Under the pieces are notes generated by a model. It was not told where the DNA came from. It saw only the letters and a program-made list of their open reading frames with translations, and did not search any database. 64,000 nucleotides of DNA from Candidatus Aenigmatarchaeota archaeon. Lineage in GTDB: Archaea > Aenigmatarchaeota > Aenigmatarchaeia > GW2011-AR5. Below are positions 5,420 through 57,978 of this stretch, piece by piece. The translations under genes and the position numbers were made by a program. The stretch is from assembly GCA_016193585.1 (NCBI GenBank), contig JACPRW010000006.1:293-64292 (forward strand), read 5' to 3'. Positions within the stretch are counted from its first letter, which is position 1; the number at the start of each line of letters is the position of its first letter.

Positions 5420-6304
5420 TCAGGCTATCGATACCATGGATTTGGTTTTCTTAATTAACCCGTCTTTTTCAAGCTGCATTAAAATGATGCGCGCCTTTGC
5501 TGCCGGCACGCCGAGCTGTTCTGCCAGTTCTTTCATGCCCATCCTTTTCCTTTCTGTCAGCAGGCGTATCATCCGCCCCCTCAGCTGCCTGTCCGAGCCC
5601 TTGAACGGCTGCTGCCGGTGATAGTGGGCGCTCTTCCTGCTCAGGTTGCCGACGGTCCTCTTGAGCATAGCGCCGTAATCCATGAGCGCATAGTACCATT
5701 CGCGGGGGTTTTCCCTGTCGAGCGACTGCTCGAGCAGCGGCAGCAGTTCGGCGTCCTTCACCTCTTTCCTGCCACTGAAAAAGAAATGGATGAAGACGGT
5801 GCGGATGTTCGTTTCAATAAATACCACCGGCCTGTTGAACGCGAACGCGCACACCGCTGACGCCGTAGCCTTTCCGATGCCCGGGAACGATTCGAGTTCT
5901 TCGGCAGAATCGGGCAGCTGCCCGTTATAGTCGCGCATCGCCAGTTCGGCGCTTCGCTTGAGCGCAAGCGCGCGGCGGTTGTAGCCGAGACCCTGCCATG
6001 CCTTCAGAACGTCGCGCAGCGGTGCAGCGGCGAGCGAGGCGAAATCGGGAAACGCGGCGAGGAACTCATCGTACTTCTTGAGCACCCTGTCCACCTGCGT
6101 CTGCTGGAGCATGATTTCGGAGACAAGGATGCGGTACGGTTCCCTCGCCCTTCGCCACGGCAGGTCGCGTCCCTGCTTCCGGTAGTAGCTCCAGATAGAC
6201 GAGCGGAACAGTCCTAGAGATGGAGTTTCAGCATGGGCGCAGAGAGACCCTTGCGCATGGCTGCGGCTTCGCTGCTCGCTCATGGAAAAGATATACGGCA
6301 TCAT
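5420..6304 (-). CDS. HhH-GPD family DNA glycosylase-like protein fused to a C-terminal winged-helix domain
   Basis: LVSEIMLQQTQ ... GYNRRA ... FPGIGKATASAV HhH-GPD motifs; no FeS cysteines; C-terminal MarR-like wH. Confidence 0.65.
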   Translation of the reverse strand: MMPYIFSMSEQRSRSHAQGSLCAHAETPSLGLFRSSIWSYYRKQGRDLPWRRAREPYRILVSEIMLQQTQVDRVLKKYDEFLAAFPDFASLAAAPLRDVLKAWQGLGYNRRALALKRSAELAMRDYNGQLPDSAEELESFPGIGKATASAVCAFAFNRPVVFIETNIRTVFIHFFFSGRKEVKDAELLPLLEQSLDRENPREWYYALMDYGAMLKRTVGNLSRKSAHYHRQQPFKGSDRQLRGRMIRLLTERKRMGMKELAEQLGVPAAKARIILMQLEKDGLIKKTKSMVSIA

Positions 6305-10569: not shown

Positions 10570-10672
10570 ACGACAATAATAGTAAAGAACATTGATTTTG
10601 GAACATTTTATGATGTTCTTTCCATATAGCAGATTGCAGCTAAAAGTTCCATTATTATTACAATCTGCTATA
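10570..10672. repeat. Palindromic MITE, family R1 (aagaacattg..caatgttctt + atagcagattg..caatctgctat)
   Basis: Copies at 32068-32159, 40497-40598, 49589-49680, 53171-53380, 57700-57795. Confidence 0.8.
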
Positions 10673-10706
10673 ACATACTTGCTCTTTGCCAAATAAAGCC
10701 GCGCAT

Positions 10707-31519: not shown

Positions 31520-31800
31520 TTATAGCTGACCAACTTAATATTCAGGTATTACACAAGTTGGTCACCTATAGTGAACCAAGTTATAGATAATTGCGCAGCT
31601 TATGTCGTATTAACGCGCAATTTTCTATAGGTGAATTGCAAATAATATCAGGACATATAGTGAACCAAGTAAATAATCAGGTATTGTATCTTGGTTCACT
31701 TATAGCGGACAACAAAAGTAATATGTCGGTATTCTTTTGTTGGTCCACTATAACCAGTGCAATTCACCATATAATATCCGGATTCTTTACTTGGTTAACT
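31520..31800. repeat. Nested mosaic of palindromic MITEs (families R6, H3 aattgcgc..gcgcaatt, H4 ggtgaattgca..tgcaattcacc); a 113-bp R6 element (31638-31750) is inserted inside the H4 loop
   Basis: Uninterrupted H4 copies at 49711-49754 and 55401-55444 give the empty site ggacaTAaccag; TA duplicated at 31636-37 and 31751-52. Confidence 0.8.
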
Positions 31801-32578
31801 ATAACTGACTGATACAAAAACATGCTCCGTTAGAAAGAAATTCAAATATTTTGTTGCATCGCTGTTTCTGTTGTTGTATTTGTTTTCGTATAAAGAAACG
31901 TACAAATGCAGGTTCTTTTTGCACACGCCTTTGAACATCTCAAGAAAATGTCTCAATCCCTGAAACGCTCCTTCTATGGTGTTCGTATGAACGTCTCCAC
32001 GCACGTATTCTTTTAGCGAGTGATTGGCAGTGGCGTGTCTGTATCCTTTTTTCTTCAGCGAATTGTAATAGTAAAGAACATTGATTTTGGAACATTTTAT
32101 GATGTTCTTTCCCTATAGCAGATTGCAGCTAAAAGTTCCATTATTATTACAATCTGCTATAAGCTGTGAAATCGTCTGTGTACACAGACGATTTTTTGTC
32201 AATTCTTTTCGGCACTTTGTTAACGCTTCTCTTTCGCATGTTTGGCAAAACCCGCAATGTAATCTTTCCTTTTCTCTCCACGCTGCCAACAATCGGCGGC
32301 TTGTCTTTGTCGTATGTCCCGCGTCCGCGCAATTTCAGGCCGCGTTTTCTAGGCGGCCTTTTGAGCGTTTTGGAGCCTTTTTCGCCTGCTGCGATGTACA
32401 TCTCGTCGATTTCCACTTTTCCGGAAAGCGTTTCCAAGAAACGCTTTTCATAAACGTTGTTCATGATTTTCTTCGCTATTGTGTGGATGTTCTTGTACTC
32501 CCTGCCAAGCTCCTGGGTTATCTTGTTTATGGAAATTCCGCGTTTCAATTCCTTTGCAATGTAAACCCATTCCCGCAA
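31795..32578 (-). pseudogene. IS1595-family (ISXO2-like) transposase gene interrupted by a 92-bp MITE
   Basis: N-part ...VEIDEMYIAAGEKG...VYTDDFTAY | insertion | NSLKKKGYRHATANHSLKEYVRGDVHTNTIEGAFQ... C-part; removing 32068-32159 plus one TA restores an uninterrupted YTDDFTAYNSLKKKGY frame across the junction. Confidence 0.75.
32068..32159. mobile_element. MITE (family R1) inserted into IS1595-family transposase ORF with TA target-site duplication
   Basis: TA at 32066-67 and 32160-61; element termini ATAG...GCTA; deletion restores reading frame. Confidence 0.8.
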
Positions 32579-32791
32579 AGGAATTTTTGAGGCATCAAAA
32601 ATAGTTCCGGTCCTTTCTGTAAAAGATTTTCCGCAACTTCTATTACCCGTTAGCCTACGCGAGGATGACGCAAGGCGAACGAAACGTCCGCTGGCGTAGG
32701 AGAACCTCCGGTTCTCCTCACGTAGGCGACTTTTTCAACAAAGCCAATCGTGCAAGAATCTTTATATACTTTATATTAATATCATATTAAG

Positions 32792-40412: not shown

Positions 40413-40598
40413 ATAGTATGTTCTGTTGATTAGTGAACATTTCATGCAGAACATACCGTATAGCAGGTTCAGGTGAAAAGTTTGGTTATTACGTGAACCT
40501 GCTATAATAGCAGATTGTAATAATAATGGAACTTTTAGCCGCAATCTGTATATGGAAAGAACATTGTAAAATGTTCCAAAATCAATGTTCTTTACTAT
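40413..40598. repeat. Two adjacent MITEs: family R2 then family R1 (inverted)
   Basis: See 405-535 and 10570-10672. Confidence 0.8.
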
Positions 40599-49229: not shown

Positions 49230-49586
49230 ATGTCATTCCATGAGGCACTCGGCCAGTCGGGCATCCTCGTCATCATCCTTTTCATCCTCTTCGTGATTGC
49301 CATCAAGAAATCGTATGAGATACTGAAGAACGTAATCCTCATCGCGGGCGCTGCCATCCTGTTCCCCCTTGTCATGAACAACATGCTCGGCTTCTCGCTC
49401 AGTACGAGCGCAGACGCGGTGGTGATGTACATAACCGCCGGCGTCGGCTTGTACCTGCTCTACCTCTTCGCCAAGTCAATCTACACGTTCCTCGGCATCG
49501 TTGAGAAGTCGGCGAAAGCTGCTGCCTCTCCGGTACGCAAAGTTATCAAGAAAAAAAGCGCGGCGCAGGACAATGATGCAGACTAA
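49230..49586 (+). CDS. Small membrane protein, hypothetical
   Basis: 3 hydrophobic helices. Confidence 0.4.
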   Translation: MSFHEALGQSGILVIILFILFVIAIKKSYEILKNVILIAGAAILFPLVMNNMLGFSLSTSADAVVMYITAGVGLYLLYLFAKSIYTFLGIVEKSAKAAASPVRKVIKKKSAAQDNDAD

Positions 49587-49588
49587 TA

Positions 49589-49790
49589 GTAAAGAACATT
49601 GATTTTGGAACATTTTACAATGTTCTTTCCCTATAGCAGATTGTGGTTAAAAGTTCCATTATTATTACAATCTGCTATAGATAATTGCGCAGCTTATGTC
49701 GTATTAACGCGCAATTTTCTATAGGTGAATCGCAAATAATATCAGAACATAACCAGTGCAATTCACCATATAATGTCAAACAAGAAATAA
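49589..49790. repeat. MITE family R1 followed by H3/H4 hairpin units
   Basis: See 10570-10672; intact H4 at 49711-49754. Confidence 0.8.
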
Positions 49791-49820: not shown

Positions 49821-50444
49821 TTAGCCCGTTGCCGACAGTTCCAGCCTGATGTCGGGGACGCTGAGGGATGCCGCTGCACCGGTTATCATTATCCCATCGG
49901 CAATCTCGACAGTGCCGAGGACGTCCTGCAGCACGACAAGCTTGTCTGCGAGCCTCAGCTCAGCTCCGCGGGCGGACAGCACCGCATTGCCGGCAACAGA
50001 GAGCTCCGCTATCGTGACGTTATCCATGACGAGCGTCCCGAATGACCCGGAGCCGCTGATGGAACCTTCTGCGAACATCGCTCCGGCAACCTCAATTTTC
50101 TTGTACGTTCCCTGCAGTTCGAGCGTCTTCCCGGAGAGCGTCCCTGCGCCCCTGAAACCCTGTACCGCTATGCTGCCGTTTGTTTCAATCCTGCCGCCTT
50201 TCACGTCAGCCGTGAATGCCTGCGGCTGCAGGATGAGACGTGCATTCGTGCCGCTGAACGTTACATTGCCGTAGCTGTCGGCTGCGAGTTCAAAAGAAAC
50301 GTTGCGGGCTGGCTGTATATCAGGAAGACTGAAGGACACCTTCTCGCCGAGAGCGTTAGCGAATTCAGCAAAAGGCCCCAGCGAGAACCCTGCCGCAAGA
50401 ACAATGCCCATGATGAGAACCGTTGCCACGATTTTCCAGTCCAT
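49821..50444 (-). CDS. Secreted beta-rich repeat protein (signal-anchored), hypothetical
   Basis: N-terminal TM; Gly/Ser/Thr-rich repetitive beta-strand pattern. Confidence 0.45.
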   Translation of the reverse strand: MDWKIVATVLIMGIVLAAGFSLGPFAEFANALGEKVSFSLPDIQPARNVSFELAADSYGNVTFSGTNARLILQPQAFTADVKGGRIETNGSIAVQGFRGAGTLSGKTLELQGTYKKIEVAGAMFAEGSISGSGSFGTLVMDNVTIAELSVAGNAVLSARGAELRLADKLVVLQDVLGTVEIADGIMITGAAASLSVPDIRLELSATG

Positions 50445-50491
50445 ATACCCCGCCTTTGCTTCGCAAACTCGTCCCTAGTATTGAATGTAAG

Positions 50492-50624
50492 GGCTCTGTA
50501 GAAACCCTAGGTAAAAGCACCCGTGGAGACCTGTTCATCCTTTTGATGAACAGGTCAGCTAGAGGTATCGTCAACAGACGATACCTCTCCCGCGGGTGCT
50601 TTTCTTGAGCATTTCTACAGAGCT
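50492..50624. mobile_element. 133-bp MITE with 13-bp terminal inverted repeats (GGCTCTGTAGAAA / TTTCTACAGAGCT) and perfect 8-bp target-site duplication AATGTAAG
   Basis: TSD at 50484-50491 and 50625-50632; internal nested perfect hairpins (aaaagcacccgtgg/ccgcgggtgctttt; gacctgttcatc/gatgaacaggtc; gaggtatcgtc/gacgatacctc). Confidence 0.7.
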
Positions 50625-50811
50625 AATGTAAGTTATCGTTCAGTATCCCATTCTATACATCTGGCGGCTTGCTTAAAAGGTTTGGAAGATTGTAAAAATG
50701 GCGGAGGGGTTCCGGTAACCGTTCAAAATTTTTGAAAAAAACTCAAAACATACTTTTAAAGTTTTCGGTACATTGTTCCCTTGTTGCTTCCCGTCATTCT
50801 GGTGATATCAC

Positions 50812-51972
50812 ATGCAACTTATGCAGTCTGACATTTTCGGCATGGTCGTCTGGTTTGTCATGCTCTTCGTATTCTTCTTCTTCTACCCGCGCCTCATGCT
50901 GGCGCAGCTCATCTTCAAGATCGAGCAGTCCGCGCGCAAGATGGAAATAATGTCGGAACACGCGAACGCGATGGCGGCCAGGAAAATAAACAAGCGCCCG
51001 CATCGGGAACTGAAGCAGTCGGTAGACAACTTCACCGACATCTTCGTCGTCGAGCCGTCAGCCATCGACCCGTACGGGCTTGTCAGGAAGGTCGACCAGA
51101 CCATCAGGCAGATGGAAACGAGGTTCGACTATTTCGTCGACGAAGTCGCAAAGGACAAGAGCTACGAGGAAAAACAGGAAATAAACTATGGCCTGCGGGC
51201 TGCAGTCGGCCTGCGGCAGATATCGAAGATGGTACGCCACTTCGTGGAAATCGCGAAGAAGTTCAAAAATCTCCAGATAGCGATGATTCTCCAGATGCAG
51301 CTCCCCATCATCGAGAAAATAGCAGAATCAGAGCTGCATGGCACGGAAGCGTTCGTCAATGGCTGGCCTATCGGCGATTCCATCGGCCCGCTCGTCGCGG
51401 CGTCACTCATCGACAAGAGCAAGGAACTGGCGGAAGACGTGTACATGGGCGAGAAGGTGATCGATGGCAGGAGGTGCTTCGTCCTCAAAGCGAACGGCCC
51501 TGCGCCGCACCTCGGAAGAATCGACGAAGCTATGGAGGCAGTCATGAAAAAGCACCGCATAGCCCGTGTCATCACGATTGACGCTGCGCAGAAGCTCGAA
51601 GGGGAAAAAACGGGGAGCGTCGCCGAAGGCATCGGCTTTGCGATGGGCGGCATAGGCCAGCGGGAGCTCATAGAAAACGTTCTGCTGCCGAAGCGAATAC
51701 CGATAGACAGCATCGTGATCAAGGTCGGGATGGCCGAAGCGATAGAGCCGATGCGGAAAAGCATCTACCACGCGGTCCCGAAAGCGGTCGCTGCAGTCGA
51801 GAAAGCTGCCGGCAGGGCAAAACGAGGGGAAAAAGTTATCGTCATTGGTGTCGGCAATTCATGCGGCATCGGCAACAGCAAGAAAGAGCTTGACGGCCTC
51901 AAGGACATTGTCACCGAGCTTGACAAAAAGATAAAGGAGGCGGAGGCGCAGAAGAAAGGCGGCTGGTTCTGA
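50812..51972 (+). CDS. Conserved archaeal membrane-anchored protein, DUF1512-like
   Basis: N-terminal TM, 386 aa; family assignment from memory, unverified. Confidence 0.4.
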   Translation: MQLMQSDIFGMVVWFVMLFVFFFFYPRLMLAQLIFKIEQSARKMEIMSEHANAMAARKINKRPHRELKQSVDNFTDIFVVEPSAIDPYGLVRKVDQTIRQMETRFDYFVDEVAKDKSYEEKQEINYGLRAAVGLRQISKMVRHFVEIAKKFKNLQIAMILQMQLPIIEKIAESELHGTEAFVNGWPIGDSIGPLVAASLIDKSKELAEDVYMGEKVIDGRRCFVLKANGPAPHLGRIDEAMEAVMKKHRIARVITIDAAQKLEGEKTGSVAEGIGFAMGGIGQRELIENVLLPKRIPIDSIVIKVGMAEAIEPMRKSIYHAVPKAVAAVEKAAGRAKRGEKVIVIGVGNSCGIGNSKKELDGLKDIVTELDKKIKEAEAQKKGGWF

Positions 51973-55147: not shown

Positions 55148-55450
55148 CACAAGTCTTATAGCAGGTTCGAATGAAAAGTTCCAGTAGTATTCGAACCTGC
55201 TATAGCTCTACAAGGAAATAAACACGATACGAGGAGAATCGAAGATTCTCCTGTACAGGTGGATTCATGGAATCCACCTTGTATTACTTCCTTGTTTGCT
55301 ATACATGGTGAAACAACGTTTCACCTGTACAGGTAAAGCTTTGCTTTGCCATGTAGGTGACGCAAATGTATAATATCGGTATTATTTATTTGCTTCACTA
55401 TAACGCGCAATTTTCTATAGGTGAATTGCAAATAATATCAGGACATAACC
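55148..55450. repeat. Tandem array of MITEs: R2 unit, AGCTCTACAAGGAA-type element (copy of 157-265), H4 unit
   Basis: Direct comparison with copies elsewhere in window. Confidence 0.8.
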
Positions 55451-57699: not shown

Positions 57700-57795
57700 T
57701 TCTTATAGCAGATTGTAATAATAATGGAACTTTTTACCACAATCTGCTATAGGGAAAGAACATTGTAAAATGTTCCAAAATCAATGTTCTTTACT
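57700..57795. repeat. Palindromic MITE, family R1
   Basis: See 10570-10672. Confidence 0.8.
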
Positions 57796-57978
57796 ATTAA
57801 TTGCAATAATTCCGATCTGTTCAAGTATCTTTGCTTCTGCGAGAACAAGTGTGCCAAACCGGCGCGCAGTGCGCGCCATTTCGCTTCTTGTCCACGCATA
57901 CCTTTTTCCTGTGCGGGACTCTTACTTCTCGCATCACTGGCAGGTATGCATGAATATGCTAGATTCGGGGGAACGGAT

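Follow-up and report, generated by a model that had tools for sequence, protein, structure and literature searches.

A 133-bp miniature inverted-repeat element with a predicted T-shaped core and an 8-bp flanking duplication in an Aenigmatarchaeota genome

The contig JACPRW010000006.1 of a Candidatus Aenigmatarchaeota archaeon (assembly GCA_016193585.1) carries, between two divergently oriented genes, a stretch of 133 bp that is bounded by inverted ends and flanked by two identical 8-mers. Positions 293 to 64,292 of this contig were analysed (64,000 nucleotides, hereafter the window, in whose own numbering all coordinates are given). The locus raises the question of how the stretch at 50492-50624 came to be there, which enzyme could have moved it, and what its strong predicted fold stands for. 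The first part can be answered with good confidence: most likely, the element is a transposable element of the miniature inverted-repeat kind (MITE) that was inserted by transposition with a staggered 8-bp cut.

Read from the sequence, the element starts with GGCTCTGTAGAAA and ends with TTTCTACAGAGCT. The left terminal inverted repeat (TIR; 50492-50504, plus strand) belongs to a class of 13-mers that ends at least 120 elements elsewhere, and it pairs in 12 of 13 positions with the right TIR (50612-50624, AGCTCTGTAGAAA in minus-strand reading), the sole failing pair being the outermost one (G vs T). An exact copy of the 8-mer AATGTAAG is located on either side (50484-50491 and 50625-50632). Since the neighbouring bases differ on both sides (g at 50483 vs t at 50624, and G at 50492 vs t at 50633), this repeat does not belong to a longer duplicated stretch. 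The non-autonomous MITE with 13-bp TIRs and a perfect 8-bp target-site duplication that the initial annotation had proposed is thus borne out. The element is non-coding, being overlapped only by chance open reading frames (ORFs) of 61-69 amino acids (aa) without any protein family, and it occurs as one complete copy in the window.

The predicted fold has the shape of a T or Y, in which an end stem is followed by an inner stem and this by two adjacent hairpins. Between end stem and inner stem lies an asymmetric internal loop, made of a left spacer CCCTAGGT (50505-50512), which is mostly unpaired and sets the orientation of the element, and a right spacer CTTGAGCA (50604-50611). The inner stem of 14 bp (13 Watson-Crick pairs and one T.G) is built from the arms AAAAGCACCCGTGG (50513-50526) and CCGCGGGTGCTTTT (50590-50603) and encloses both hairpins. 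Hairpin X (50528-50556) consists of a perfect 12-bp stem GACCTGTTCATC/GATGAACAGGTC with the loop CTTTT, hairpin Y (50561-50588) of a perfect 12-bp stem AGAGGTATCGTC/GACGATACCTCT with the loop AACA, and a central AGCT (50557-50560) is situated between them; all of these parts are given in plus-strand reading. Instead of the three nested perfect hairpins described initially, there are two side-by-side hairpins around AGCT, enclosed by the inner and the end stem. With RNA parameters the two strands fold at -87.1 and -86.6 kcal/mol (z = -12.4 and -13.2), with DNA parameters the element folds at -51 kcal/mol (z = -12.7), and in no case did a shuffled sequence reach the same value. Hairpins X and Y are the longest tight perfect hairpins across the window, which contains six distinct hairpins whose stems reach 10 bp or more, compared to 0-2 per shuffled window.

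Relatives of the element were identified by a pattern scan of one genome per prokaryotic species (GGCTYTGTWGAAA-N(92-122)-TTTCWACARAGC, covering exact TIRs and interiors of 92-122 nt only). At least 120 loci with elements of 118-147 bp were found, compared to roughly 0.1-2 matches expected by chance according to our estimate. A search for further copies, as suggested by the initial annotation, hence reveals similar elements in archaea, Planctomycetota, and Verrucomicrobia. Among the matches listed, the archaeal hosts are Methanosarcinales, Methanomicrobiales, Halobacteria, Bathyarchaeia, and many DPANN lineages (Aenigmat-, Woese-, Pace-, Micr-, Nano-, and Nanohaloarchaeota), and the bacterial hosts are Planctomycetota and Verrucomicrobiae. 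For 125 elements, the flanks were readable; perfect flanking duplications of 8 bp were observed in 40 and of 9 bp in about 18 of these, and other registers are rare. The duplicated target sites all differ between elements and are richer in A+T than the surrounding loci (72.5% vs 56%). In the assembly CAYJUT01, seven contigs carry one copy each, all 100% identical, and six of these copies are flanked by perfect 8-bp duplications that differ from one another, which is the signature of a recently active MITE. Multiple copies were also found on contig L146 (three copies) and contig L114 (two copies), both belonging to the subfamily of the window copy, whose closest relatives occur in Aenigmatarchaeota-type assemblies. 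The assemblies CAYJTG01 and JACPJX01 likewise contain members of this subfamily. A metagenome scan with the left end of this subfamily added nine loci. No relevant paper containing ends of the GGCTCTGTAGAAA type was found, and the TIR class itself as well as its presence in DPANN archaea appear to be undescribed.

A haloarchaeal MITE family of 124-125 bp with GGCTCTGTTGAAA ends was observed on 44 plasmid records, including those of Haloferax volcanii (strain DS2, NC_013966.1 129837-129961 and NC_013968.1 46921-47041; a further copy is located at 5686-5810 of locus L042). None of these records holds an annotated repeat or mobile-element feature under the copies, most of which lie outside any listed gene; the remaining ones overlap a hypothetical protein or belong to records that carry no annotation. 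A 3-kb contig labelled Bacteroidales bacterium UBA2030 (L034, DDBO01000088.1) carries a 120-bp variant of the Methanosarcina type, whose terminal 30 nt or so equal those of copies in metagenome-assembled genomes of Methanosarcina and Methanosarcinaceae. The contig is therefore more likely to be mis-binned than to hold a truly bacterial copy.

In the Aenigmatarchaeota subfamily, the interior is formed by a common core, i.e., the inner stem and two perfect 12-bp hairpins around an AGCT that is invariant among all members. This architecture is shared by nine distinct subfamily members while the sequences of their stems differ. In an alignment of the core, which with 9-10 distinct sequences from at least eight assemblies is a small sample, 98.3% of the cells of the 51-pair structure named above hold standard pairs. 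Changes on both sides were observed for 23 of the 51 pairs, compared to a mean of 11.2 in shuffles (none of 500 reached 23) and 0-3 when the partners were slid. For hairpin X, 10 of 12 pairs are changed on both sides with 100% of the cells paired, and for hairpin Y 7 of 12 with 99.1% paired; in total 17 of 24 hairpin pairs covary and none varies on one side only. The same fold is given unaided by RNAalifold. Conserved parts of the core are the base of the inner stem (AAAAGCA/TGCTTTT, with the more distal part of the arms covarying), the hairpin bases GACC.. and AGAG.., and the central AGCT, and variable parts are the upper stems and the loops. A single G-U pair occurs in the three inner helices. 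Due to this covariation with almost no G-U, complementarity is of the Watson-Crick type on both strands, which points to a core that is maintained as DNA-level palindromes rather than as an RNA of one strand. A covariance model of the core recovers about 22 copies, all within the Aenigmatarchaeota subfamily, and none in other lineages sharing the ends; a scan of viral contigs for the core pattern gave eight chance matches without hairpins.

Read against the asymmetric outer spacers, both orientations of the core occur. The order X-AGCT-Y is found in the window and at the loci L049, L114, and L145, and the order Y-AGCT-X at L012, L014, L143, L146, L149, and L150. L145 and L150, which originate from one metagenome and occupy different insertion sites, agree fully in their first 35 nt and in their last 36 nt, between which their 62-nt middles are exact reverse complements. 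Similarly, the core of the window copy (50527-50588) is identical to the inverted core of L146 in 57 of 62 positions, and the differences are located in the loops. The endpoints of the inversion lie in the 14-bp arms of the inner stem. Since these arms are 62 bp apart and thus too close for looping of a stiff duplex, we infer that the core was inverted when, in the course of replication or copying, synthesis on folded DNA switched strand or template. It is unlikely that the inversion is an artefact of assembly, because the 14-bp arms are shorter than the usual k-mers of assemblers (at least 21) and than the reads. The core with its flip/flop isomers appears to be undescribed as well.

At L114 (3467-3597, uncultured archaeon ERP125453_co1_24), the same core is found between unrelated inverted ends, GGATAGAATTCCAT...ATGGAATTCTATC. 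This single example has a flanking repeat of approximately 7-9 bp and is located 1.5 kb from a normal copy of the GGCTCTGT type. Three further copies (L144 2-112, L146 1382-1496 and 2037-2151) contain an extra small hairpin, ATGGACGTGC-TNT-GCACGTCAT, which sits inside the loop of either hairpin X or hairpin Y; the insert measures 34 nt in L144 and in one L146 copy, and 35 nt in the other L146 copy.

With respect to the enzyme, the termini are informative. The first 8 nt of the element, GGCTCTGT, are identical in all eight positions to those of the annotated IS1595-family insertion sequences (ISs) ISSag10 and ISCaje6. The end of ISSag10, which has an 8-bp duplication TTATAAAA, starts with GGCTCTGTCACAAC (GGCTCTGTCACAA), that of ISCaje6 starts with GGCTCTGTTAGAC, and the annotated elements ISAma5 (GGCTATGTTCTGC) and ISBth19 (GGCTATGTTTTAAA) start with ends of the GGCTATGT type. 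Like those of the MITE, the ends of all four begin with GGCT(C/A)TGT. The MITE also fits GGCnnTG, which we take to be the end consensus of the ISPna2 group in the ISfinder/Siguier classification and which was checked on annotated elements; two other IS1595 subgroup consensus ends that we assumed likewise matched annotated elements. The other IS1595 subgroups that were checked end differently, i.e., with CCTGATTAGCCC, GCCTATCCGG, or CGCTCTT. Hence we favour, with moderate confidence, a mobilisation in trans by an IS1595-family transposase of the ISPna2/ISSag10/ISCaje6 type.

A degraded IS1595 transposase at 31.8-32.6 kb had been named in the initial annotation as hint at this family. It is real, being the one IS1595 gene of the window, an ISH4-like remnant with the domain PF12762 (31806-32641, minus strand), but it is implausible as mobiliser. 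The remnant is 5'-truncated, lacking the first 55 codons or so as well as the left end, and a 97-bp TA-type element (32066-32162) divides it in two; its protein is 90% identical to that of an intact relative of 297 aa (P0001), and its DNA homology to intact relatives is confined to 31806-32641. These relatives end with CGCTCTTCC.. (CGCTCTTCCCC..) or CGCTCAT.., thus with CGCTC[T/A]T and not with GGCTCTGTAGAAA, and have 8-bp duplications of their own (e.g., AATCCTTT and GCCCATTT); haloarchaeal ISH4-like members read CGCTCTT(A/C)TGTAG. Due to its truncation, its interruption, and the ends of its intact relatives, the local remnant was rejected as source or mobiliser of the MITE. A TIR-like 13-mer at 32733-32745 was also rejected as end of this IS, because it belongs to a separate MITE fragment and the IS homology stops at 32641. 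This fragment (32642-32745, minus strand, GGCTTTGTTGAAAAAGTCGCC...) is a second, one-ended element of the same TIR class with a length of 104 bp, whose terminal 17-18 nt are identical to, or one mismatch off, the ends of DPANN MITEs. It is rich in hairpins and is joined directly to the truncation point of the remnant, and it may mark the event that truncated the IS.

The search for a partner was extended to all loci carrying a MITE. TIR pairs at a distance of 0.5-3 kb were absent from 120 loci, and searches of all MITE loci for an IS1595 transposase by tblastn and by hidden Markov models were negative. A solitary TIR near a long ORF was considered as trace of a partner, and the sole candidate proved to be an antiporter gene beside a 47-bp remnant. 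Eight further IS1595 homologues with flanking sequence all have ISH4-type or GGCTCAT ends, and partial matches on haloarchaeal plasmids turned out to be other MITEs. Beyond the extreme termini, no sequence shared with a parent IS was found, nor was a DDE_Tnp_IS1595 gene between the same ends.

Taken together, the element would represent a 133-bp non-coding derivative of a DDE-type insertion sequence, unable to move alone. A transposase encoded elsewhere would recognise the GGCTCTGT(A/T)GAAA ends and excise or copy the element, which would be inserted at a staggered 8-bp cut, and repair would then yield the AATGTAAG duplication. This transposase would be of the ISPna2-type IS1595 kind and not the product of the dead ISH4-like copy in the window. 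The fold would form in DNA, either as a cruciform or by single-strand snap-back during replication, and would be kept since it helps a short, stiff element to present both ends jointly to the transposase; a replication-linked inversion of the 62-bp core between the 14-bp arms would be accounted for by this folding, too. The formation of this fold in DNA in vivo, and its retention as an aid to the propagation of so short an element, are a tentative proposal, to which we assign somewhat less than an even chance. A more far-reaching version, in which the core is a self-contained DNA module that must fold to propagate, inverts by hairpin-mediated synthesis, is exchangeable between MITE scaffolds whose ends are unrelated, and is itself under selection, is improbable.

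Several observations weigh against this explanation. The assignment to IS1595 rests on eight shared terminal bases and the length of the duplication, and both GGCTCT and an 8-bp duplication are found in ISL3 elements, too (PMC6305408). A full-length IS with GGCTCTGT(A/T)GAAA ends, the search for which had been suggested in the initial annotation, is absent from approximately 0.9 Mb of MITE-bearing loci and was found neither on the plasmids nor on the viral contigs searched. No clean empty site (which would read ...TATTGAATGTAAGTTATCG... or, after removal of the 141 bp, ...CCCTAGTATTGAATGTAAGTTATCGTTCAG...) was recovered from the nearest relatives, whose flanking protein is only 73% identical and which are thus too divergent for this purpose. 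In each of three independent assemblies of the strain, the locus is identical to the window, so that the orientation of the element is constant and neither polymorphism nor an in-situ flip of the core was seen. The window holds just one full copy and one fragment. With regard to the fold, the core alignment is small, and the perfect arms could come from palindrome-correcting template switching instead of selection. Many of the other subfamilies that have these ends show weak folding, at a median of -0.35 kcal/mol per nt and around -0.2 in Methanosarcina, from which it follows that the T-shaped core is lineage-specific and not a general requirement of this transposase class.

The most serious alternative concerns the fold. 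Hairpins and flip/flop isomers could be neutral by-products of inverted repeats, with one arm of a quasi-palindrome being rewritten from the other by template switching and the spacer between the 14-bp arms being inverted by strand switching, and this is a real possibility. Arm-to-arm copying would give exactly the strictly Watson-Crick changes on both arms with almost no G-U that were observed. Moreover, good duplications are also seen in other subfamilies that have these ends but little structure, and the decayed copy L143 shows mismatches. On the other hand, stems of 12 and 12 bp, the AGCT, and the GACC/AGAG bases persist in at least eight genomes or assemblies despite the turnover of the stems, and the same core appears between unrelated termini, a pattern that is hard to obtain without a filter acting on the amplified copies.

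The second alternative retains a MITE but assigns it to another DDE family that duplicates 8 bp, mainly ISL3, or to an ISH4-like IS1595 element with variant ends; we regard this as unlikely, though worth keeping in mind given that no partner IS turned up for the MITE. The ISL3 element ISArsp7 has inverted repeats starting with GGCTCTTCGCGG and an 8-bp direct repeat (PMC6305408). As ISL3 elements make 8-bp duplications too, such a duplication is not diagnostic of IS1595, in contrast to what the initial annotation had presumed; the link to IS1595 proposed there is instead carried by the termini. No ISL3 element for a direct comparison was present on the one plasmid inspected, so that the published ISL3 inverted repeat was used, and against its start GGCTCTTC (GGCTCTTCG) the MITE matches in six of eight positions vs eight of eight for ISSag10 and ISCaje6. 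ISL3 is therefore the weaker rival to the ISPna2-type IS1595 transposase. The ends of ISH4-like relatives vary (CGCTCTTCTGTAG, CGCTCATCTGTAG, GGCTCATGTTTC) and are in part like GGCTCTGTAG, but every element examined has two to three extra bases before the TGTAG or ATGT motif.

According to a third alternative, the fold is conserved by a structured non-coding RNA (ncRNA) or a transcription signal, such as a small RNA, a terminator, or an RNA-stability element. The predicted RNA fold is indeed very stable, TTTT follows the inner stem on both strands in a terminator-like layout, the element is situated 40 bp upstream of a gene start, and MITE transcripts are known for stable stem-loops and sometimes give small RNAs (reviewed in PMC10969869). 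However, Rfam gave no match in the whole window at the gathering threshold and, under relaxed conditions, only sR17 with 12.6 bits vs a threshold of 36 (E = 1.5), so that the initially recommended check against Rfam leaves the structure unexplained by any known ncRNA. Neither tRNA nor tmRNA genes were detected by ARAGORN, and a terminator and promoter scan gave nothing. Furthermore, hardly any G-U occurs among the pairs that covary, conservation does not extend to the loops, and copies insert both ways while their cores flip, under which an RNA of one strand would not be preserved. As to the highly structured RNA envisaged in the initial annotation, strict Watson-Crick covariation on both strands and the flips of the core favour DNA palindromes instead, and we consider this alternative very unlikely. 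That inverted ends and repeat reflect coincidence or a local segmental duplication, as might be suspected from the one full copy in the window, is practically negligible in view of a repeat of exactly 8 bp with mismatching neighbours, dozens of related elements with their own different 8-9-bp repeats in the same register, and seven identical copies at different loci of one genome.

The genomic setting is that of a divergent promoter region. On one side, a gene encoding a predicted membrane protein of 207 aa (49821-50444, minus strand) is located, whose ATG is 40 bp away from the element; on the other side, a DUF1512 protein gene (50812-51972) is situated, which is followed by a TrmB regulator gene. 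The same gene triplet occurs in two relatives (DUF1512 with 73% identity), where the intergenic regions have lengths of 100 and 135 bp and contain no such element. In the window, this region measures 367 bp, or 226 bp after subtraction of the element and one copy of the repeat, and the shorter regions of the relatives lend support to the presumed insertion at this site. In the relatives, an A/T-rich, TATA-like box is located approximately 20-30 bp upstream of the start of the 207-aa gene, but no such box is visible in the 39 bp between this gene and the element of the window. Therefore, the insertion may have displaced or replaced the promoter of the 207-aa gene. At the opposite side, a conserved TATA-like box CTTTT(T)AAAG ends about 8-10 nt before the ATG of the DUF1512 gene in the relatives (L152 1478-1500 and L153 1478-1500), and in the window (50764-50812) about 40 nt separate this box from the called ATG (50812). 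In the window, the actual DUF1512 start or the transcript leader may be different.

A separate and much more abundant hairpin system is given by units of 48-50 nt with the layout TATAG-stem-loop-stem-CTATA, which crowd the window in many variants and in both orientations and are often chained head to tail, thereby sharing TATA. Examples are found at 456-503, 10625-10672, 31521-31629, 40459-40506, 49632-49723, 55157-55204, and 57704-57751, and larger composites at 2085-2234/29557-29706, 8894-9013/52877-52996, and 154-255/55201-55302. The 97-bp TA-flanked double-hairpin repeat that splits the IS1595 remnant also occurs at 10577-10673, 49584-49680, and 57703-57799.

With regard to annotation, the GGCTCTGT(A/T)GAAA ends mark a very widespread class of 118-147-bp MITEs, which annotators could flag by a simple pattern; MITEs are barely documented in DPANN archaea. 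At the locus studied here, the distance of 40 bp to the gene start implies that the insertion may have rewired a promoter. The compensatory changes and the exact 62-bp inversion make the subfamily unusually clean evidence for a MITE-internal fold at the DNA level, and a testable question arises from it, namely how elements shorter than the persistence length of DNA bring both of their ends together. If the far-reaching reading of the core as a self-contained DNA module is true, it would amount to a structure-dependent mobilisation or copying of MITEs in DPANN archaea, which is not described for DDE transposons.

Among known systems, the class as such has precedents. A MITE of Haloquadratum walsbyi that was assigned to ISHwa6 has a length of 165 bp, inverted repeats of 25 nt, and 8-bp direct repeats (PMC3852290), and IS1595-derived MITEs with 8-bp duplications are thus already on record in archaea. 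The element resembles IS1595-family MITEs in its small size, its non-coding nature, its TIRs, and its 8-bp duplication, and IS1595-family parents in its GGCT(C/A)TGT termini, except that no parent with the ends of the element was found. It differs from these MITEs by its interior, which is a covarying, flipping, palindromic T core instead of paired IS end fragments.

Elements of the REP/REPIN and PATE types, which are moved by Y1/HUH enzymes, are likewise short, abundant, intergenic, and hairpin-forming at the DNA level. However, these elements and the derivatives of IS200/IS605 have no such TIRs or target duplication and insert beside a specific short motif, whereas the element has inverted ends as well as target duplications, which vary and measure 8-9 bp in its class. 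The T-shaped inverted terminal repeats of adeno-associated virus (AAV) and other parvoviruses consist of a long stem and two small hairpins within approximately 125-135 nt and occur as flip/flop isomers. Topology and the presence of two isomers that arise by inversion of the inner arms are common to both, which is no membership but an analogy in shape only, illustrating how DNA synthesis by way of hairpins can invert a core. Unlike these repeats, the element is not located at the end of a linear genome, has no Rep/HUH nuclease nearby, and possesses DDE-type ends and a target duplication.

Correia elements (CREE/NEMIS), RUP, BOX, ERIC, and QMITE are, like the element, intergenic sequences of approximately 100-150 bp with inverted ends and strong stem-loops. 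The target duplication of Correia elements is TA, and RNase III cleaves the RNA hairpins as which their transcripts act. In comparison with Correia and other TA-duplicating MITEs, the element is distinguished by its 8-bp duplication, its strict Watson-Crick pairing, and its DPANN host. Stable folds are typical of MITEs, and in general such bacterial MITEs are often located near gene starts and able to alter expression (PMC10969869).

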